From Deltaproteobacteria bacterium (GTDB lineage Bacteria > Myxococcota_A > Polyangia > Polyangiales > Houyiibacteriaceae): 64,000 nucleotides of DNA. Below are positions 1 to 64,000 of the stretch, piece after piece. The DNA lies in contig SHLP01000006.1 in NCBI GenBank assembly GCA_004283055.1, positions 5,131-69,130 of the forward strand, given 5' to 3'. Position numbers and translations under genes: made by a program. Numbering within the stretch: the stretch's first letter is position 1; every line of letters begins with the position of its first letter. The notes beneath the pieces are model-generated. The model ran no database searches. It saw nothing but the letters and a program-made list of their open reading frames with translations, and was not told the DNA's origin.

Positions 1-701
1 CCCGCGCCGTGTATGGGTTCTGGCCGGCAAACCGGGACGGAGACGACATCATCGTTTGGGACGACGAGGAGCGGACCCAACAGAAGCTTCGGTTCCACAT
101 GCTGCGGCAACAAGGGGTGAAGCCCAATGAGCAACCGTACCTATCGCTCGCGGACTTCGTGGCTCCGATCGCGTCTGGCGCTGCGGATTATCTCGGTGCC
201 TTTGCGGTCACGACGGGCATCGGCGCCGATGAGCTGGCCGACGAGTTCGAGCTCGCACACGATGACTACAACGCCATCATGGTGAAGGCGCTTGCCGACC
301 GTTTGGCCGAAGCGTTCGCCGAGCTGATGCACGAGCGCGCGCGCCGCGACTGGGGCTACGAGCCCGACGAGGGATTCAGCAGTGAAGAGCTCATTGCCGA
401 GAAGTACCGCGGCATTCGGCCGGCCTTTGGCTATCCCGCTTGCCCGGACCACACGGAGAAAACGGCTCTCTGGGAGCTGCTTGGGGCCGACGAGATCGGG
501 ATTTCTCTGACCGAGCACTTTGCGATGTATCCGGCTGCGAGCGTCAGCGGGCTTTATTTAGGACATCCCAAAGCCCGCTACTTCGCGGTGGGCCCCGTCG
601 ATCGCGAGCAGGTCGAGGATTACGCGCGCCGAAAAGAAGTGACTGTCTCCGAAGCGGAGCGCTGGCTTCAACCTAACCTCGGCTATCAGCGAGGGAGTTG
701 A
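1..701 (+). CDS. metH: Cobalamin-dependent methionine synthase, C-terminal reactivation (AdoMet-binding) domain; 5' end lies outside the window
   Basis: The frame is open from the window edge to TGA at 699-701. The translation ([60 protein letters not shown]) matches the conserved MetH C-terminus by eye. Confidence 0.85.
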
Positions 702-11277: not shown

Positions 11278-12449
11278 CGCGGCTCCTTCGGCAGCCCGAG
11301 TCCTCGTTCGCCAATGATGTTTCGTTGGATCTGATTGGAACCCGCGTAGATCGTGTCAGCCCGTGAAAACAGGCACCACTTCTGCATGGCGGTAAGCTCA
11401 TACGGCGCCGCATCGAGCAGCTCGGCTTCCGGGCCGAGCACATCCATCGCGAGCTTGCCTAGGTCGCGATGCCAATTCGACCAGTAAAGCTTGCTGATCA
11501 GCGCTTCTCGGTTCAGATCCGCACCTTCGTGTTCCAGCATTCGAAGCGCGTTGACGCGCATGATTCTGAGGCCGATCGCGGCGTTCGCGATTCGCTGCCT
11601 GAGGATGGGGTCCTTTGCAGCTCCCGATTCTCGTGCGGCAGCGACGACCTGCTCGAATTCCTTCTGAAAGAGGTACTGCTGACCGAGCGTTGACGCTCCC
11701 CGCTCGAAGGCAAGCGTGCCCATGGCGACTTTCCACCCGTTGTTGACGCCGCCGACGAGATGATTCTTTTCTGCCTTGGCACCGTCGAAGAAAACCTCGG
11801 CGAACTCCGCGCTCCCGCTCATTTGTCGGATCGGGCGCACTTCGATGCCTTGCTGTTTCATCGGAACGAGAAGGCAGCTGATGCCGCGGTGCTTCGCGGC
11901 TTCTGGGTCGGTCCGGCAAAGAACGAAGCACCAGTCCGAGTACTGCGCACCCGAGGTCCAAATTTTTTGGCCCTCGATGATCCACTCGTCACCGACCAAT
12001 CTGGCTTTGGTCTGGACGTTGGCCAGGTCAGATCCCGCGCCGGGCTCCGAGTAGCCCTGACACCAAATTTCTTCGCCCGAGACAATCGGCGGTAGGAAAC
12101 GTTTCTGTTGCTCCGTCGAGCCAAAATGAATCAGGGTCGGTCCTAGAAGCGTCTCGCCGATGTGGCCAACGTTGCCCGGCCCGTTCGCGCGCACGTATTC
12201 CTCGTTGAACACCGCCTCTTCCTTGATCGAGCATCCGCGGCCGCCAAACGCCTTGGGCCAGCCAATGCAGTTCCAGCCAGCAGCGCCCATGACCCTGCCC
12301 CAGGCCACCCGCTCCTCGACGTAGCGGTCTTGGTCGCCGGAGGCGCCTCGGCCCTGCAGCTCTTTGAAGGGGCCATTGAGCTGCTCTTCCAACCAGGCGC
12401 GCGCCTCCTGACGGAACGCCTCTTCTTCGTCGCTTAGCTGTATCTCCAT
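11274..12449 (-). CDS. Acyl-CoA dehydrogenase family protein (C-terminal IYAGSNQIQRNII)
   Basis: The start was moved to the ATG at 12449, which forms a TGATG overlap with the upstream ACAD stop. N-terminus MEIQLSDEEEAFRQEARAWLEE. Confidence 0.85.
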   Translation of the reverse strand: MEIQLSDEEEAFRQEARAWLEEQLNGPFKELQGRGASGDQDRYVEERVAWGRVMGAAGWNCIGWPKAFGGRGCSIKEEAVFNEEYVRANGPGNVGHIGETLLGPTLIHFGSTEQQKRFLPPIVSGEEIWCQGYSEPGAGSDLANVQTKARLVGDEWIIEGQKIWTSGAQYSDWCFVLCRTDPEAAKHRGISCLLVPMKQQGIEVRPIRQMSGSAEFAEVFFDGAKAEKNHLVGGVNNGWKVAMGTLAFERGASTLGQQYLFQKEFEQVVAAARESGAAKDPILRQRIANAAIGLRIMRVNALRMLEHEGADLNREALISKLYWSNWHRDLGKLAMDVLGPEAELLDAAPYELTAMQKWCLFSRADTIYAGSNQIQRNIIGERGLGLPKEPR

Positions 12450-13594
12450 CACAAACCCATCTGCGCTGCGACTCGCTCGCGGTGAAAGGCGGGGCCCCCG
12501 AAGAGATTCTCGGTCGCCTTGGCTCGCTTGAAGTAAAGGTGTGCGGGGTGCTCCCAGGTGAAGCCAATCCCGCCGTGGATCTGAATCATTTCGGAGGCGC
12601 AGTGAAAGAAGGCATCTGAGCAATACGCCTTGGCGCTCGACGCCGCCTCCTCGAGGCTTTCGCCACCCTGCGTCGCCAGAGCACTCGCGTAGAACGCGGC
12701 GGATCGCGCCGACTCCACCAACGTCAGCATATCCGCACACTTGTGCTTGATCGCCTGGAACGAGCCGATCGGCCTTCCGAACTGCTTGCGCACCTTCGCG
12801 TACTCGACCGACATTTCAAGACACATCTCAGCGGCGCCCACTTGCTCCGCTGCGAGCGCAATTCGGGCGAGGTCCAGTGTCCTTTCGCAAAGCCACCAAC
12901 CTTTTCCTTCGTCGCCGAGCAGGGCGTCGTCGGGCACCGTCACTTCCAAGAGCTCGACGGATGCCATCCGCCGGGTCTGATCCATCGTTGGCAGCCACTT
13001 GCGTTTTAGCCCGTCCGCGTCCTTGGGCACCAGGAACAAGCTTACGCCATGGGGACCCGTGCCCGCGCTCCGCTCCGAGCGCGCTGCGACGATCAAGAGA
13101 TCGGCTGTGTGCCCGTCGAGCACGTAGCTCTTGGCGCCGCTGAGCAGGTAGCCGGCGCCGTTTCGTACGTAGCTCGCTTCGACACCGGCGGCGTCCATTC
13201 GGCCGTTCGTTTCTGCGAAGGCGAGAGTGGCCCGCGTTTCTCCGGCGGCAATGCCCGGGAGATAGAGCTCCTTCTGGGCTTCGCTCCCGCCGATCATGAG
13301 CGCATTGGCACCCAAACCAACGGTCGATAGAAACGGGGCGCAGAGCAGTGCGCGCCCGATCTCTTCCATCAACGGATGCAAGTCGAGGTAGCTCAGGCCG
13401 AGGCCGCCGTATTCCTCAGGAATGGTGAGCGCTGTCCACGCGAGCTCCTCCGAGAGCTGCGCCCAGGTTGCCGGGTCGTAGCCTCGCTCCGTTTCCATTG
13501 CGCTCCGAACACGAGCCTCAGAGGACGCCACCTCCAAGAAGCGTCGAGCGGCTCGTCTGAGCTCGTTCTGATCTTCCGAGAATGAAAACTCCAT
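12449..13594 (-). CDS. Acyl-CoA dehydrogenase family protein (partner subunit type)
   Basis: 381 aa. MEFSFSEDQNELRRAARRF...IHGGIGFTWEHPAHLYFKRA. Confidence 0.85.
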   Translation of the reverse strand: MEFSFSEDQNELRRAARRFLEVASSEARVRSAMETERGYDPATWAQLSEELAWTALTIPEEYGGLGLSYLDLHPLMEEIGRALLCAPFLSTVGLGANALMIGGSEAQKELYLPGIAAGETRATLAFAETNGRMDAAGVEASYVRNGAGYLLSGAKSYVLDGHTADLLIVAARSERSAGTGPHGVSLFLVPKDADGLKRKWLPTMDQTRRMASVELLEVTVPDDALLGDEGKGWWLCERTLDLARIALAAEQVGAAEMCLEMSVEYAKVRKQFGRPIGSFQAIKHKCADMLTLVESARSAAFYASALATQGGESLEEAASSAKAYCSDAFFHCASEMIQIHGGIGFTWEHPAHLYFKRAKATENLFGGPAFHRERVAAQMGL

Positions 13595-51908: not shown

Positions 51909-52985
51909 TCAGGCTGCTTCGATGGCGGTCACCACGGCGCCCGCCATCTCCGTCGTCCCGAGTGAACGCTGTCCCCCGCTCAAATCGGCCGTCCTGAGGC
52001 CACTGTCGAGAACTTTTTGAACCGCGTTCTCAATCGTGTTGGCATCTTCATCGAGGTTGAGACTGTGCCGAAGCAGCATCGCCGCGCTCAAGATGGTGCC
52101 AAGTGGGTTCGCAATCCCCTTGCCGGCAATGTCCGGCGCCGAGCCGTGGATGGGCTCATAGACGCCCAGAGTGCCTTCGCCGAGCGATGCGCTTGGGAGA
52201 AGCCCGAGCGAGCCCGTCAAGACAGCGCCTTCATCGGACAGAATGTCACCGAACATGTTGCCGCTGACGATGACATCGAACGACGCAGGGTCGGTGACGA
52301 GACGCATGGCGGCAGAATCCACGAGCTGGTGGTCGAGACGAACGTCAGGGTTGGCCTTGCCGACCTCGGTCGCAATCTCCCGCCAGACCTGCATCGTCGC
52401 CAAGACGTTGGCCTTGTCGATCGAAGTGACATGTCCGCCGCGCTTTCTGGCGACCTGGAAGGCCAAGTCGACGATGCGACGAATCTCGTTCTCGTCGTAC
52501 ACCATCGTGTCGAAGCCCGTGCGTAGGCCGTTCCTCGTCTCCTTGCCCTTTGGCTGTCCGAAGTAGATTCCGCCCGTCAGCTCCCGGATGAAAACGATGT
52601 CCACGCCGCGGAGCCGCTCAGCCTTGAGAGGGGACGCGGAGTCTAGCCCTCGGAACAGCTTCACCGGGCGAACGTTGGCGAAGAGCTTCAGGGCTTTTCG
52701 CATCCCGAGCAGGCCTTGTTCCGGACGAACCTTCGCCTTCGGATCGTCCCATTTCGGCCCGCCCACCGCGCCGAGCAGCACCGCGTCCGCACTCCGGCAA
52801 TCAACGATGGTGTCGTCCGGCAGAGGAACGCCCGTTTCGTCGATGGCAATCCCGCCTATGAGCTGCGTCGAATAGCTAAACGTGTGTCCCGATTTGCTCG
52901 CGACGGCTTCCAGCACTTGGCGAGTCGCGTCTACGATTTCGGGTCCAATGCCATCGCCTGGAAGAAGTGTGATCTTGGCTTTCAT
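51909..52985 (-). CDS. leuB: 3-isopropylmalate dehydrogenase
   Basis: 358 aa. MKAKITLLPGDGIGPEI and NMFGDILSDE motifs. Confidence 0.9.
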   Translation of the reverse strand: MKAKITLLPGDGIGPEIVDATRQVLEAVASKSGHTFSYSTQLIGGIAIDETGVPLPDDTIVDCRSADAVLLGAVGGPKWDDPKAKVRPEQGLLGMRKALKLFANVRPVKLFRGLDSASPLKAERLRGVDIVFIRELTGGIYFGQPKGKETRNGLRTGFDTMVYDENEIRRIVDLAFQVARKRGGHVTSIDKANVLATMQVWREIATEVGKANPDVRLDHQLVDSAAMRLVTDPASFDVIVSGNMFGDILSDEGAVLTGSLGLLPSASLGEGTLGVYEPIHGSAPDIAGKGIANPLGTILSAAMLLRHSLNLDEDANTIENAVQKVLDSGLRTADLSGGQRSLGTTEMAGAVVTAIEAA

Positions 52986-53041: not shown

Positions 53042-54670
53042 CTAAGTCCGGGCCACAGGGGCTTCCGGCTGAGCTTTCTGCCTCGCGCGCTCTAGCGAGA
53101 GTCCATACTCGATGCTGTCGACCAGCGCTTGGAGTGAAGCTTCGATGATATTGCTCGATGCGCCCACCGTGCTCCAGCTGTCGTGAGACGATTGACTGTC
53201 GATGAGCACCCGCGTGGTCGCGCCGGTTCCGCTCCGCCCGTCGAGAATGCGCACCTTATAGTCCGTGAGATGCATGTCGGCGACCTCGGGGAAGAACGGT
53301 CGCAGAGCCTTGCGAATCGCCGAGTCCAGGGCGCTCACCGGGCCGTTGCCTTCACCTGCGGTGTGCACGACTTCATCGCCAATCCGCACCTTTACCGTGG
53401 CCTCGGCGAACATGCCGCCACCGCGACGCCGACCGACGCCGGCCTGAAAGTCCAGCACTTCGAAAGGAGCTTCATAGTCGGCCTGGTGCCGAGCCATCAG
53501 AACCGCAACGGAAGCCTCGGCTGCCTCGTACGCGAAGCCCTTGGCTTCGAGCTCCTTGATCTTCTCTAGAACCAGTCCCCCGCTCGCAGAGCTCACTTCG
53601 AGCCCCAGCTCTTCGGCCTTGCTCCGCAAGTTGCTTCGCCCCGACAGCTCGCTCACGACTACGCGCGACTCGTTGCCAACGAGCGTGGGGTCGACGTGTT
53701 CGTAAGACTCAGGATGACGCCGGATGGCCGAAACGTGGATGCCGCCCTTATGTGCGAATGCACTTCGCCCAACGTAGGCTGCATGCTCGTTGGGGCTCAG
53801 GTTCGCGATCTCTGCGACGAAGTGGCTGAGGTCGTGAAGCTGCTCGAGGCCGCCTTTCGGAAGACATTGAAGCCCGAGCTTGAGCTCTAGATTGGGAATG
53901 ACGGAGCAGAGGTTCGCGTTGCCGCAGCGCTCACCGTAACCGTTGATCGTCCCTTGTACGTGGCGCGCGCCTGCGCGAACCGCAGCAATGGAATTGGCGA
54001 CGCCGCATTCTCCGTCGTTGTGGGCGTGGATGCCGAGGCGCGCGTCGGGAAGCGCAAGCTTGACGGTGTTGACCATCTCTTCGATCGCCCAGGGCATCGA
54101 GCCGCCGTTCGTATCGCAAAGAGTGAGGGTTTCCGCACCAGCGCGGTCAGCGGCCCGCAGAGTCTCGAGCGCATAGCTGGGGTCCGACTTGTAGCCGTCG
54201 AAGAAATGCTCAGCATCGTAGATCACGCGGCGCCCGCTTTGCCTCAGGAACGCGACGCTCTCTTCGATCATTCGCAGGTTTTCCTCGAGGCTGGTTCGCA
54301 GCACCTCAGTGACATGCATGTTCCAGGTCTTGCCGAAGATGGTGCAGACCGGCGTTTCGGCTGCGATCAGTGTTTGAAGCTGAGGGTCGTCCTCCGCGCG
54401 AAGCTCGGCCCGGCACGTCGACCCGAAGGCTGCGATTGTCACGTTTTCCCAGGCCATGTCCTTCGCACGCTCGAAGAACTCGACGTCCTTGGGGTTCGAG
54501 CCTGGCCAGCCGCCCTCGATGAACGTCGCGCCGATGGTATCGAGGTGTTCCGCGATACGAAGCTTGTCGTCACAGGACAGGCTCATCCCTTCCATCTGCG
54601 TGCCGTCGCGCAGGGTGGTGTCATAGACCTCCACGACGGGCCCAGAGACGCTATGGCCGTTGTTGCTCAT
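53042..54670 (-). CDS. cimA: Citramalate synthase (LeuA-family, CimA type)
   Basis: 542 aa. VEVYDTTLRDGTQMEGMSLSCDDKLRIAEHLD and GWPGSNPKD motifs, plus a C-terminal LeuA-dimer regulatory domain. It overlaps leuD by 20 nt. Confidence 0.75.
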   Translation of the reverse strand: MSNNGHSVSGPVVEVYDTTLRDGTQMEGMSLSCDDKLRIAEHLDTIGATFIEGGWPGSNPKDVEFFERAKDMAWENVTIAAFGSTCRAELRAEDDPQLQTLIAAETPVCTIFGKTWNMHVTEVLRTSLEENLRMIEESVAFLRQSGRRVIYDAEHFFDGYKSDPSYALETLRAADRAGAETLTLCDTNGGSMPWAIEEMVNTVKLALPDARLGIHAHNDGECGVANSIAAVRAGARHVQGTINGYGERCGNANLCSVIPNLELKLGLQCLPKGGLEQLHDLSHFVAEIANLSPNEHAAYVGRSAFAHKGGIHVSAIRRHPESYEHVDPTLVGNESRVVVSELSGRSNLRSKAEELGLEVSSASGGLVLEKIKELEAKGFAYEAAEASVAVLMARHQADYEAPFEVLDFQAGVGRRRGGGMFAEATVKVRIGDEVVHTAGEGNGPVSALDSAIRKALRPFFPEVADMHLTDYKVRILDGRSGTGATTRVLIDSQSSHDSWSTVGASSNIIEASLQALVDSIEYGLSLERARQKAQPEAPVART

Positions 54671-59928: not shown

Positions 59929-59929
<1 letters not shown>

Positions 59930-61701
59930 TAGCTGTCCTCTCCGGTTTCGAAAATTGGGTTGTGCTCCGGCTCACCCGGTTTGCCGGGCCGCTGAATCAT
60001 CTTGTCGAGGTCGGCTCCGGCCGGCACCATCGGGTACACGGCGTCCTCCTGCTCCACGCGGAAGTCGATGACGACGGTACCCTCCGTGGCCTCCGCCTGG
60101 CGAACGGCTGCTTCGACCTCCGACCGTTTCTCCACGCGAACGCCCGTTAGACCGTGTGCTTCCGCGAGCTTCACGAAGTCCGGGCTGAGTAGGGGCGTCG
60201 CCACGTAGCGTCCGCCGTAGAAGAACTGCTGCCACTGACGCACCATGCCGAGAAAGCCATTGTTGATGATGGCGATGTTGACTTTGACGCCCTCTTGGGC
60301 ACAGGTGGACAGCTCTGCGGCCGTCATTTGAAATCCACCGTCGCCGCAGACTACCCAAACGGACTCGTTGGGCTCGGCGAATTTCGCGCCGATGGCGGCG
60401 GGCAAAGCAAAGCCCATCGTTCCGAGCCCTCCCGAGGTGAGCAACTTCCGCGGGTAGTCGTGCTTGTAGTATTGGGCTTCCCACATCTGATGTTGGCCGA
60501 CGTCCGTGACGACGAGCGCTTTGCCTTCGGTGAACCGGTAGAGGTCGTGGATCACGTGGGCGGCGTAGAGCTTTCCGAGATCGGGAAGGTTCTTGATGTC
60601 CCGGACGGCCGATCCGCCTTTGCTTTCATCGATGTAGGCGAGCCATTCCGGGCGGTCGCAGCGTCCGACGAGAGGCGTGAGTGCCTCGAGGACCTCACGC
60701 GCATCGCCGACGATCGGCACGTCGACGCGAACGTTCTTGTTGATCTCCGCCGGGTCGAGCTCGATGTGAATTTTCTTGGCGTTTTGCGCGTAGGTCTTGA
60801 GGTTGCCCGTGACCCGGTCATCGAAGCGCATTCCGACCGCGATGATCAAATCAGCGTCTTGGATGGCCTGGTTGACCCAGGTCTCTCCGTGCATGCCCAT
60901 CATGCCGAGGTTTCGCTCATGGGTTGCTGGAAAACCACCGAGGCCCAGCAGGGTGCAGGCCACCGGAATGTTCGTCGTTTCGACGAACCTCGTGAGGCTC
61001 TCCGTTGCCTGTGCCTTGATGACCCCATACCCCGAGAACAGAATCGGACGCTTCGCGTTCTTGATGAGATCGACGGCGTCGTCGAGCTGATCCGCCAGCG
61101 GCGCGTAGTCGGGACGGTAGCCCGGGAGCTCGATCTCTTCGTCGCTCCACTCGAATACACAGGATTTCTGCTGTGCGTCCTTGGTGATGTCGACGACGAC
61201 TGGTCCGGGGCGGCCGGAACGGGCGATGTAAAAGGCCTCGCGAATCGTCGGGGCGATTTGCTCGGGTTCGGTCACCAGGTAGTTGTGCTTGGTTACCGGG
61301 ATGGTGCAGCCGGTGATGTCGGTTTCCTGGAATGCGTCGCTGCCGATGAGGTGCGAGGGGACCTGCCCAGTGATGCAGACCATCGGAATCGAATCGAGCA
61401 TGGCGGTCGCGATCCCAGTGACCAGGTTCGTGGCGCCCGGACCCGAGGTTGCGATGCAAACGCCGACCTGTCCCGAGGCGCGGGCGTACCCATCGGCCAT
61501 GTGCGAGGCGCCTTGCTCGTGGCGCGTCAGCACGTGGTGAATGGGGTATTCGGTCATCGCGTCGTAGGCCGGCATGATCGCGCCGCCCGGATACCCGAAG
61601 CAGACCTCGACCCCCTCGCGTACGAGCGCTTCCCAAATGATCTGAGATCCGGAGAGCGATTCGCCGATGCGATTTTTGAGCTTGGGATTGGCGGGTGTCA
61701 C
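59929..61701 (-). CDS. ilvB: Acetolactate synthase large subunit
   Basis: The start was set at GTG 61701, preceded by AAGGAG with a 6-nt spacer. FGYPGG and the ThDP motif GGLGTMGFALPAAIGA...GDGGF. Confidence 0.9.
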
Positions 61702-61893
61702 GAGGTTCTCCTTCGGTGCTGGCTGGCTCCAACTAGTTGATTTGAGGCGGTATTCAAGCGCCAGACGCCCCACGAGAAAGGCGCCGGGTCGATCACCGAC
61801 CGGGCGCCCCTTCCGAAGACGAATTTCGTCGTGCCCGACGGATGCCAGCTCGCTGTAGTTTTGCGTTTTGAGTGTCTATTCATGGGTCTAAGG

Positions 61894-61928
61894 AAACAAA
61901 AAAGCCCCCGCATGCTCGATGCGAGGGC
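61894..61928 (-). terminator. Intrinsic terminator (attenuator) in the ilvB leader
   Basis: The minus-strand RNA is GCCCUCGCAU-CGAGC-AUGCGGGGGC followed by UUUUUUGUUU. That gives a 10-bp stem (one G-U pair) and a 5-nt loop. Confidence 0.75.
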
Positions 61929-61972
61929 CAGAAACGGAGTGGGTTGGTCTGTGGGTTGGTTCTGGTCCCCGC

Positions 61973-62092
61973 CTATGCCTGCGTAACGAGCAGGAGGCTA
62001 ATAATGAGGCCGACTACGACTACAACGGACCCGACGATGCCCGCGCGAAGCGCGTCCACCGGGTGATTGATAGCGATCGACTCACGAACCAT
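61973..62092 (-). CDS. Candidate ilv-leu leader peptide (39 aa): MVRESIAINHPVDALRAGIVGSVVVVVGLIISLLLVTQA
   Basis: Translated codon by codon from the minus strand. 19 of 39 residues are Ile/Val/Leu, with a run IVGSVVVVVGLIISLLLV using GTA, GTT and ATT codons. The stop lies 3 nt before an antiterminator arm. Confidence 0.55.
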   Translation of the reverse strand: MVRESIAINHPVDALRAGIVGSVVVVVGLIISLLLVTQA

Positions 62093-62101
62093 TACCACCC
62101 C

Positions 62102-62130
62102 ATTCTGCGGCCAACCTCCGCCAGGGTCAA
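62102..62130 (-). promoter_or_regulatory. Sigma70-like promoter candidate for the ilv leader (TTGACC-17 nt-CAGAAT)
   Basis: On the minus strand, -35 is at 62130-62125 and -10 at 62107-62102. The leader ATG follows 9 nt after the -10, so the 5' UTR would be very short. Confidence 0.4.
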
Positions 62131-62176
62131 GAGGGGCGCTCGCGACCGCCTCAAGCCAACGGAATCACCTGCTTTC

Positions 62177-63775
62177 TCAGCGTTCGTCCCAGTCGACGGC
62201 GAGGGTCTGCTCGATGGGGCTCGCGATCAGGGGCTCCGAGCGCCGCTCGATTTGGTCGACGAACACGTCCCACCAGGCCTCGGCGTCGGCGCGGGTCCAT
62301 TGGCCGGCCGCAAGTTGATCGAGAGCGTCAGCGAGCTCTTGTGCGGAGGCTGGCCTCTTGGCCTGATCCTTTTCCAAGCAAGCCATGATGAGTGCCTCGA
62401 GCCCTTCGGGGATCTCGAGCGGCGACGCTTCCGAGAGCGGAGTCGGCTTGGTGTGAACGTGGTGAAGGCAGACCTCCATGATCGTCTTCCCATTGAAGAC
62501 GTGGCGGCCTGACAAAAGGTAGTATCCAACTGCACCTAGGGCGTAGATGTCGGTGCGCGCGTCGATGGCCTGCGGTTCCTGGATCGCTTCGGGGCTCAAG
62601 TAGTGAGGCGTACCCTTGATCGACAGGGTGTTGGTTTTCTCGAGGTCGTCGACCTTGCCGAGATTCTTCACGAGGCCGAAATCCAAAACTTTGGTCACAT
62701 CGCGCACGCCGCCCTGGCGCGCGAGCATGACGTTGCTCGGTTTGATGTCGCGATGAATCAAGCCCACCTCGTGCGCTTCATTGAGCGCAAGCGCCGCGTC
62801 TCGAAGGATGCGTACGACCCGCTCGACCGGCTGCGGACCGCCCGCCTGGACCACTTGGGTAAGGGTCGCCCCGTCGAGCAGCTCCATGGCGTAGTAGAAG
62901 AGCCCGTCTGGCGTCCTGCCGTAGTCGTAGATGGTGACGGTGTTCGGGTGGGTGAGCTTTGCGGTTAGCTGCACTTCGCGACGGAAGCGCTCGAGGGCCT
63001 CCGCGTCCGCAATCTCCGGACGCAAGAGCTTGATGGCGGTCGGTCGTTTCAACATGCCGTGCTGCGCCTCGTAGACGACTCCCATCGCGCCCTCGCCGAG
63101 CTTGCGGCGAAGATTGTATTGACCGAGGCTCTGGATGTCGCTCACCTCTTTGCGTAGGCGATGAATGACCCGGGACGCCAGCGCCGCCAGGCCGATGGTG
63201 AGCGTCCACCACATGAGCGTGATCACCGACTGCGCGGAGGCGACGCGCGGTTTCGACTCCGCGGGGTAGCCGAATACTCGCCAGATCCCGAGGTCAATGC
63301 TCAGGTAGTGATAGTACATCGCTGCCACCAGCGGGATCCCGATCAGGATACCGAGAAACGTGGTGCGGAGGGCCGAGCTCGGGACGAAGACGCTCCGGGC
63401 GAACATCACGAGCGCCAAGATGAAGGCTGTGATCGTGTCGGCCCCGACCTCTGGTCGAATCTGCAGTCCCATGCCGATGTAGCAAATGCTGGTGAGGAAG
63501 ATGCCAGCGTTTTCGATTCCGTGAATCGTGTTGACCGAGAGGTTCCCGCGTCGGCAGATCAGCCAAACCGCCAGCATGGGAACGATCCCGGCGGCGTGGA
63601 TCAGGAAGCCGGGGTTGGTGACCTGGTCCTCGATGACCCCAAATAGAAGACCCAGGACCAGGCGAAACGCCAAGGCCGTGCCGCCCAGGGCAGCGCCGAT
63701 GAGGCCAAAGGTCGCAACGCGCCGCTGCAGAAAGGCGCGGGCTTCAGGATTTGCGAAGTAGGTGCTGCTGCTCAT
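62177..63775 (-). CDS. Hanks-type Ser/Thr protein kinase with an N-terminal polytopic membrane domain
   Basis: The start was set at ATG 63775 to avoid overlapping the upstream permease. There are about 6-7 hydrophobic helices, followed by GEGAMGVVYEA...AIKLL, HRDIKPSN and DFGL motifs. Confidence 0.8.
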   Translation of the reverse strand: MSSSTYFANPEARAFLQRRVATFGLIGAALGGTALAFRLVLGLLFGVIEDQVTNPGFLIHAAGIVPMLAVWLICRRGNLSVNTIHGIENAGIFLTSICYIGMGLQIRPEVGADTITAFILALVMFARSVFVPSSALRTTFLGILIGIPLVAAMYYHYLSIDLGIWRVFGYPAESKPRVASAQSVITLMWWTLTIGLAALASRVIHRLRKEVSDIQSLGQYNLRRKLGEGAMGVVYEAQHGMLKRPTAIKLLRPEIADAEALERFRREVQLTAKLTHPNTVTIYDYGRTPDGLFYYAMELLDGATLTQVVQAGGPQPVERVVRILRDAALALNEAHEVGLIHRDIKPSNVMLARQGGVRDVTKVLDFGLVKNLGKVDDLEKTNTLSIKGTPHYLSPEAIQEPQAIDARTDIYALGAVGYYLLSGRHVFNGKTIMEVCLHHVHTKPTPLSEASPLEIPEGLEALIMACLEKDQAKRPASAQELADALDQLAAGQWTRADAEAWWDVFVDQIERRSEPLIASPIEQTLAVDWDER

Positions 63776-63794
63776 GCCGGCATGCCCATCATGA

Positions 63795-64000
63795 CTAACT
63801 CCGGAGGTTGTAGCCACTGCGCAGCAGCGCGCTTGCTGCACCGAGGACTACGAAGAAGGACATCAGCACGACCGCGGCGCTGGTGACGGGAGAGACGTCC
63901 GCCACCCCGAGGAAGCCATACCGAAGCCCGTTGACCATGTAGAGCAGCGGGTTGAGACGACTCACCGTGTTCCAGGGCTCCGGGAGAAGATCGATCGAGT
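63795..64000 (-). CDS. ABC-2 type transporter permease, C-terminal fragment; 5' end lies outside the window
   Basis: The minus-strand translation ...LNPLLYMVNGLRYGFLGVADVSPVTSAAVVLMSFFVVLGAASALLLRSGYNLRS ends at TAG 63795-63797. It resembles YadH/NodJ-type C-termini. It is absent from the ORF track because it is truncated. Confidence 0.5.
   Translation of the reverse strand, partial: SIDLLPEPWNTVSRLNPLLYMVNGLRYGFLGVADVSPVTSAAVVLMSFFVVLGAASALLRSGYNLRS

Follow-up and report, generated by a model that had tools for sequence, protein, structure and literature searches.

The DNA analysed here is a stretch of 64,000 nucleotides (nt) from contig SHLP01000006.1 of an uncultured deltaproteobacterium (GenBank assembly GCA_004283055.1), hereafter the window, and the element in question is a leader region of ~390 nt that precedes ilvB on its minus strand. 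In the direction of transcription the minus-strand order is a Ser/Thr kinase gene (63841..62177), a promoter, an open reading frame (ORF) of 39 codons, an antiterminator, a terminator (T1), a second frame (ORF2) holding a second hairpin (T2), and ilvB; all coordinates given for these features refer to the minus strand of the window. The ilvB gene (GTG start, 61701..59929) is preceded by the Shine-Dalgarno sequence GAAGGAGAA (61714..61706) and is the first gene of an operon that runs in the order ilvB-ilvN-ilvC-leuA-leuC-leuD-cimA-leuB down to position 51909, as assigned from Pfam and NCBIfam models. An earlier note on this DNA, made from the letters alone, had read the leader as a classical attenuator with a peptide rich in Ile, Val and Leu.

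The products of the operon, i.e., valine, leucine and (via citramalate) isoleucine, are exactly the amino acids encoded in the regulatory block of the leader peptide described below. The gene between leuD and leuB (53042-54670, minus strand) matches citramalate synthase (TIGR00977, 751 bits) and shares the operon with leuA. As this enzyme is encoded in the operon, a threonine-independent route to isoleucine would also come under the attenuated operon, and the Ile codons of the leader fit with its presence there.

The leader peptide and its promoter

By DNA similarity search the element was found in 24/24 other genomes of the same genus and in 0/16 genomes from other families of the Polyangiales. 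A degenerate motif made from the end of the 39-codon frame (ORF1) matched 48 species genomes, all of them metagenome-assembled genomes of uncultured organisms and labelled, nearly without exception, as Polyangiales, Myxococcales, Myxococcota, delta proteobacterium or Sandaracinaceae. The element is represented by 49 distinct sequences from one uncultured genus of the Polyangiales (Myxococcota), and in those 8-kb loci that reach far enough downstream the leader is followed by ilvB, ilvN, ilvC and leuA in the same order. One locus with the Polyangiales ilv leader, L048 (CAXMND010000127.1), carries the label 'uncultured Coxiellaceae bacterium'; the tree places its ilvB within the myxobacterial genus (support 100/98), and the taxonomic label is probably wrong.

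ORF1 (62092..61973) consists of 39 codons and a TAG stop. Its product, MVRESIAINHPVDALRAGIVGSVVVVVGLIISLLLVTQA, ends in ...VVVVVGLIISLLLVTQA and contains 19 Ile, Leu or Val residues among its 39, and the translation is exactly the one given in the earlier note. Both the ATG and the frame are kept in the 49 distinct sequences, at lengths of 36-43 codons; the N-terminus is variable, and the C-terminus, GVVVVVGLIISLLLVTQA followed by the stop, is nearly invariant. Within it the regulatory block (62026..61985, codons -17 to -4 before the stop) reads GTT GTA GTC GTA GTC GGC CTC ATT ATT AGC CTC CTG CTC GTT, that is five Val, a Gly, a Leu, two Ile, a Ser, three Leu and a Val, of which 12/14 are Val, Ile or Leu. 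The entropy of the block was 0.17/0.08/0.45 at the first, second and third codon positions, respectively. Change is chiefly at third positions, which is a hallmark of translated sequence. The earlier note had named as a refuting case a hairpin that is conserved without its ORF, and this case is excluded by the nearly invariant C-terminal block with its mostly third-position changes.

The codons of the block are also unusual for the organism. Counted position by position over 48 species and compared with the codon usage of this 63% G+C genome itself, the Val codons GTA and GTT have shares of 32% and 40% in the leaders vs 5% and 13% in the genome, while GTG has 1% vs 33%; the Ile codon ATT has 94% vs 20%, and the Leu codon CTA 23% vs 3%. 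The rarity of GTA, GTT and ATT that had been remarked upon from this one sequence is thus borne out by genome shares of only 5%, 13% and 20%. A Monte Carlo test on the 12 regulatory codons gave p = 0.027 for this sequence and p = 0.0008 for the genus consensus. Furthermore, ORF1 ranked first for single-residue runs, among Ile, Leu, Val and the other candidate regulatory residues, in a crude genome-wide scan for ATG-started ORFs of 10-70 codons with a stop no more than 90 nt from a hairpin with T5; an ORF with an Arg run was left out of this ranking by the residue filter. Candidates rich in Cys, His, Phe, Thr or Asn from the same scan were dropped as no credible gene was found downstream. One short ORF, MTCCTACCTLRACE..., on the minus strand of contig C102 (~12337-12522, reverse-complement coordinates), has Cys at four of its first nine codons and is followed after ~40 nt by a hairpin with a T-run; it is superficially like a cysteine leader, with no credible gene seen downstream.

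The predicted promoter is of the sigma-70 type and occupies positions 62130..62102, with the -35 hexamer TTGACC (62130..62125), a 17-nt spacer and the -10 hexamer CAGAAT (62107..62102). It was recovered by consensus scan where it had been proposed before, close to the ATG; the scan found two promoter-like sites in the region vs 0.2 expected from shuffled sequences. The geometry is kept throughout the genus. In the 49 distinct sequences the promoter takes the form TTGAC[CG]-17-CA[GC]AAT, with TTGAC invariant and CA[GC]AAT nearly so, and the ATG sits 6-9 nt past the -10 hexamer (9 nt from the hexamer end at this locus). In other families of the Polyangiales, where the promoter was readable, it follows the pattern TTGAC[CGT]-17-CAnnnT with the start codon again 6-9 nt away. 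The spacing leaves no place for a Shine-Dalgarno site before the ATG of ORF1, whose message is therefore probably leaderless or nearly so; the geometry read in the other families would likewise give leaderless mRNAs. The genome of the window (G000) holds 22 sites of the form TTGAC-16..18-[CT]Ann[AT]T with an ATG or GTG within 5-10 nt (e.g., C100:45275+, C57:2130- and C238:16596-), and 13/22 of these open ORFs of at least 100 codons vs 5/19 for control triplets. Leaderless genes are therefore plausible in this genome, and such mRNAs may be fairly common in the organism.

The promoter and the conservation of ORF1 bear directly on an alternative in which the hairpin after ORF1 does no more than terminate the upstream Ser/Thr kinase gene, and ORF1 is a chance frame. 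The kinase gene does lie on the same strand and ends at 62177, ~250 nt upstream of the T1 hairpin. However, a conserved promoter stands between its stop and ORF1, and ORF1 is conserved in 49 sequences and changes within its regulatory block as coding sequence does. In addition, an ortholog of the kinase gene is adjacent in some species only; in many others it is >3 kb off or unseen within the fetched 8-kb locus, and the leader still precedes ilvB. The alternative, already raised in the earlier note, fails on this account and is extremely improbable.

Competing helices downstream of ORF1

Two helices that share a strand were found between ORF1 and ORF2. Their analysis was based on an alignment (A1) of 48 sequences, with pairing percentages calculated over 47 distinct ones. 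The 5' arm of the antiterminator, region 2 (GCGGGGACCAGAA, 61972..61960), pairs with region 3 (UUCUGGCCCUCGC, 61933..61921) across a loop of 26 nt (61959..61934). In the alignments this loop is C/A-rich and G-poor; its composition is kept among species while its sequence varies. The antiterminator comprises 12 pairs and one A.C mismatch and has a free energy of -17.4 kcal/mol when folded alone. The pairing proposed in the earlier note held, with a small correction: in its best-supported register, 61972..61960 with 61933..61921, the helix extends two pairs further at the base. Terminator T1 (61928..61898) has a stem of 61928..61919 with 61913..61904, a CGAGC loop and a U-tract at 61903..61898. 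The consensus scan, too, found a canonical terminator as had been predicted, and drew it as an 11-pair hairpin with U-tract at 61929..61903. The G+C-rich stem of 10-11 bp followed by U6 gives -19.1 kcal/mol when folded alone. Positions 61928..61921 are common to region 3 and the 5' arm of the terminator; antiterminator and T1 overlap by these 8 nt and are hence mutually exclusive. Region 2 starts right after the TAG stop in all 48 aligned sequences, and the last control codon ends 12 nt ahead of it.

Both helices are kept across the genus. T1 is paired in 100% of cells, with four pairs changed on one side and one on both sides, and the antiterminator in 99.8%. At antiterminator pair 63:113 (G61970-C61923), 43 sequences have G-C, one has G-U and three have A-U. 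In a maximum-likelihood phylogeny of ilvB, the species with A-U fall in three separate, well supported clades and have G-C sisters, which indicates three independent compensatory events from G-C to A-U. In one of these species (L041) the partner in the 3' arm of the terminator has also changed from G to A, so that regions 2, 3 and 4 covary as a triple. Such triple covariation would be expected from a need for region 3 to pair with the one neighbour or the other. When the leaders were folded species by species, the RNA that ends at region 3 was predicted to fold into the antiterminator in 45/48, and the RNA extended through the U-tract into the terminator in 45/48.

A third hairpin, P1 (61998..61971), lies in the 3' end of ORF1 and is formed by 61998..61990 with 61982..61978 and 61974..61971 (-12.8 kcal/mol). 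Its helix 1 is paired in 100% and its helix 2 in 94.5% of cells, and pair 39:55 covaries (CG in 36 sequences, UG in five, GC in two, UA in one, unpaired in three). P1 may serve in pausing or act as a weak anti-antiterminator. A further pairing proposed by RNAalifold, between GGCCUC (62011..62006) and the 3' arm of the terminator, was rejected because no two-sided changes were found.

Taken at face value these features suggest the following course of events. The transcript would start at, or 1-3 nt from, the ATG of ORF1. With Val, Ile and Leu all plentiful, a ribosome would run to the TAG and cover the next 13 nt, which are region 2; region 3 would then pair with region 4, the terminator and its U-tract would form, and polymerase would stop at ~61898, ~200 nt short of ilvB. 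If any of the three amino acids were scarce, a ribosome would stall within the VVVVV-G-L-II-S-LLL-V block, which is made up largely of rare codons. The footprint of a ribosome extends ~12-15 nt 3' of the decoding site. As no codon of the block comes closer than 12 nt to region 2, the footprint of the stalled ribosome would not reach past the stop codon; left free, region 2 would capture region 3 upon its emergence, no terminator would form, and transcription would read through into the operon. The enterobacterial leu leader uses rare CUA control codons, and by likeness to these the rare codons of the block should sharpen the response.

As judged from sequence comparison, it is very likely that a ribosome-mediated (leader-peptide) attenuator tunes expression of ilvBNC-leuA-leuCD-cimA-leuB to how much charged Val, Ile and Leu tRNA is available. 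The comparative evidence covers the promoter, ORF1, its codon block and two mutually exclusive helices with compensatory changes; the transcription start, the translation of ORF1, the geometry of the ribosome footprint and the response to amino acids are inferred. The classical attenuation logic proposed in the earlier note is supported by the conserved ORF rich in Ile, Leu and Val, the terminator, the overlapping antiterminator and the stop codon that abuts the antiterminator arm, and the conservation in relatives that it had suggested checking was found, in that peptide and hairpins are kept upstream of ilvB in 49 distinct sequences.

Several observations weigh against attenuation at T1. Most helix positions are invariant and covariation is limited to a few columns. 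A convincing anti-antiterminator was not found by examining P1, by RNAalifold or in the per-species folds, the overlap of P1 with region 2 being 2 nt, so that read-through may be the default for a naked transcript. Pairing of a 5' AUGGUUC with GAACCA/GGACCA of region 2 is predicted in 30/48 species; AUGGUUC goes with GAACCA, and AUGGUCC with species that have GGACCA only, a weak association that corresponds to one or two evolutionary events. The crude ATG/T5 scan revealed no other amino-acid leader peptide in this genome. Finally, ilvB of Streptomyces coelicolor has a similar-looking leader in which mutation of the candidate codons had no effect (PMC1262725), and this calls for caution with all leader predictions of this kind.

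The lack of an anti-antiterminator and the S. coelicolor result would also be accommodated if ORF1 were translated and conserved and control were exerted otherwise than by classical attenuation at T1, with the peptide or its translation acting through Rho-dependent termination on C/A-rich untranslated stretches or through mRNA stability, or having no effect specific to Ile, Leu and Val. A Rho-dependent mechanism is in keeping with the conserved C/A-rich and G-poor loop of the antiterminator and with the A/C-rich start of ORF2. On the other hand, the covariation of regions 2, 3 and 4 shows selection on each of the two alternative helices, every species has T1 as a canonical hairpin with U-tract, and in every species the stop codon abuts region 2. 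Control by such other means is consequently unlikely, and leader-peptide attenuation at T1 remains the preferred explanation.

The second reading frame and hairpin T2

The ~190 nt between T1 and ilvB are conserved as well. They contain ORF2 (61883..61698), a frame of 61 codons and a TGA stop (MNRHSKRKTT...QHRRRTS) that starts 14 nt past the U-tract of T1 in an A/C-rich, unstructured context, and the stop of which overlaps the GTG of ilvB as GTGA. The frame is open in 37/43 species parsed, vs one and 13 for the other two frames, and in three further species, read by hand, a stop cuts it short by five codons. From the ATG of ORF2 to the GTG of ilvB the distance is exactly 182 nt in 37 species, and larger insertions or deletions preserve the frame (L014, -78 nt; L051, -57 nt; L024, +24 nt). 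The entropy by codon position is 1.22/1.27/1.22 in the middle of ORF2, with no periodicity, and a periodic 0.53/0.49/0.90 in codons 2-10. In one species (L025) the ORF2 frame is fused to ilvB, as read by hand from the alignment, and in a sister genus (L120) an ATG-started frame continues into ilvB. ORF2 may thus be the remnant of an N-terminal extension of IlvB, and that it is translated is an inference. A programmed frameshift from ORF2 into ilvB was considered and rejected as there is no slippery heptamer at CCC UCG UGA.

Inside ORF2 lies the terminator-like hairpin T2 (61808..61772), in which 61808..61797 pairs with 61791..61780 and which is followed by a weak U-tract, UUUCUCGU. In 37 ungapped sequences RNAalifold found covariation in T2 (CG/UG/UA, GC/AU and UA/CG) and returned T2 only, with no alternative structure in the ORF2 region. 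At least five U were present in the 8 nt after T2 in 26/28 species, although the tract is weak in this window.

In classical attenuators the 1:2 hairpin provides the logic that tells a starved from an untranslated leader. It could be speculated, with more doubt than confidence, that the leader here is a two-checkpoint device, in which the Ile/Leu/Val attenuator reads through by default without a ribosome and T2 is melted by ribosomes translating the ilvB-coupled ORF2. If true, starved ribosomes would lead to read-through of both hairpins, and the absence of translation to a stop at T2; ORF2 and T2, if functional, would be an alternative to an anti-antiterminator for untranslated leaders. For ORF2 and T2 only, a parallel is offered by pyrBI of Escherichia coli, where the leader ORF runs through the terminator, and a close ribosome prevents termination while an absent or lagging one allows it. 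ORF2 likewise runs through a terminator-like hairpin, and it differs in ending in a GTGA overlap with the structural gene; in this comparison it is a prediction both that ORF2 is translated and that T2 terminates transcription.

In three other genera of the Polyangiales (L116, L119 and L122) the leader terminator is followed by an ORF of 46-50 codons with the common motif EVLRxARxExLG, e.g., MTKENVKSPDDPRRAEPPRSAWQSQPFDLREVLRKARAEALGALAPNSF, and its product may be a small protein conserved in the ilv leader region.

Distribution and relation to known attenuators

The wider distribution was assessed by inspection of ilvB upstream regions and with a covariance model (R1) built from alignment A1. 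Analogous leaders are found before ilvB in at least six families of the Polyangiales (f1, f5, f8, f15, f17 and f19 in the numbering of the analysis). Examples of their peptides end in ...VQLVVVLLGILLISGGAG, ...SALISIVVLDSTLLLITEGAY, ...VTIVGNRVGVLILGILETRAEA, ...SILLSLVVVLGLIGPGAVAV and ...GGLVLILGLVLGLLISSRCEAPRI, each directly before the stop, and each is then followed by a GCCCC...GGGGC hairpin with U-tract and by ilvB (in one case by ilvD-ilvB). In several of the leaders from other families the antiterminator arm is located within the last codons of the ORF. A short ORF rich in Ile, Leu and Val was not found within 600 nt upstream of ilvB in 14 sampled Myxococcota genomes outside the Polyangiales, a result that applies to the sampled genomes, where ilvB may not be the first gene.

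The peptides from other families also speak to the idea that the product of ORF1 is a small, hydrophobic membrane peptide that has its own function, toxin-like or regulatory, with the hairpin as the terminator of that small gene. In length the conserved C-terminus GVVVVVGLIISLLLV would suffice for a membrane helix, and a variable N-terminus is seen in many small membrane proteins. Against this, the blocks of identical residues (five Val, two Ile, three Leu) are kept as such and not replaced by interchangeable hydrophobic residues, the rare codons are kept with them, and ORF1 is always directly upstream of ilvB. Neither would a membrane peptide account for a conserved helix that competes with the terminator and has its 5' arm starting at the stop codon, nor for peptides in other families that differ in sequence yet are rich in Ile, Leu and Val and stand before ilvB. 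A membrane peptide is very unlikely for these reasons, and a regulatory leader peptide is preferred.

Leader-peptide attenuation of branched-chain operons is known experimentally from enterobacteria and Corynebacterium. The leaders of ilvGMEDA (ilvL) and ilvBN (ivbL) in E. coli and Salmonella resemble the one described here in having a short ORF in which Val, Ile and Leu codons are clustered before a branched-chain operon and a terminator 5' arm that is common to the antiterminator. The proposed action is likewise similar, in that a ribosome at the end of the ORF would favour termination and a stalled ribosome read-through, and that all three amino acids would be sensed, as with ilvL. There are also differences. 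There is no sequence or Rfam relationship to these leaders; the present leader has no room for a Shine-Dalgarno site and its mRNA is probably leaderless; it has no clear 1:2 anti-antiterminator and its stop codon abuts the antiterminator arm; its operon unites ilvBNC, leuA, leuCD, cimA and leuB; and a second ORF and a second hairpin are found downstream. A search of 61000..63000 against Rfam with E-values up to 10 gave three chance-level matches, none of them an amino-acid leader, T-box or riboswitch, and there was no match to Leu_leader (RF00512) or to the His, Thr and Trp leader families. The element is therefore a functional analogue, and not a member, of the Rfam amino-acid leader families.

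A second comparison is with the leader of ilvBNC in Corynebacterium glutamicum. Its transcript starts one nt from the start codon of IlvL (MTIIRLVVVTARRLP), without a ribosome binding site, and the 292-nt leader region combines control codons for Ile, Val and Leu with a terminator/antiterminator pair (PMC11857589). C. glutamicum ilvL is thus a demonstrated precedent for a leaderless leader peptide. The two have in common their position before ilvBNC, a long leader (292 nt there vs ~390 nt here), the control codons for Ile, Val and Leu and the terminator/antiterminator pair. They differ in that C. glutamicum belongs to another phylum and shows no detectable sequence similarity, that its peptide has 15 codons vs 39 here with many more control codons, and that its three-hairpin model includes an anti-antiterminator that is not evident here. 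Also, the evidence there is mutational, whereas the present leader is known from sequence comparison. In Actinobacteria (Mycobacterium, Streptomyces) ilvB leaders have been predicted by comparative genomics, with short ORFs that carry Ile, Val and Leu runs close to U-run terminator hairpins upstream of ilvB (PMC1262725). These ORFs overlap the terminator hairpin, whereas ORF1 ends before a separate antiterminator.

Comparative predictions of attenuators cover proteobacteria and Actinobacteria (PMC1262725), and according to a review of RNA regulons Ile/Val attenuators are not in Rfam and amino-acid attenuators may stem from the gamma-proteobacteria (PMC3766115). In the literature no paper was found that unites leader peptides and attenuation with myxobacteria or deltaproteobacteria; the study of Lopatovskaya et al. 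(2010), which may be wider in phyla, was outside this comparison.

The textbook mechanism would be unchanged by the leader described here. Its appeal lies in the lineage, the leaderless design, the clean three-way covariation and the presence of ORF2 and T2. The ORFs of 39 and 61 codons are near or below the usual limits of gene calling and are candidates for an annotation correction, and with ~50 species in one genus and variants in six families the element would lend itself well to a new RNA family model. If the proposed reading is correct, branched-chain leader-peptide attenuation would be extended to the Myxococcota (order Polyangiales).

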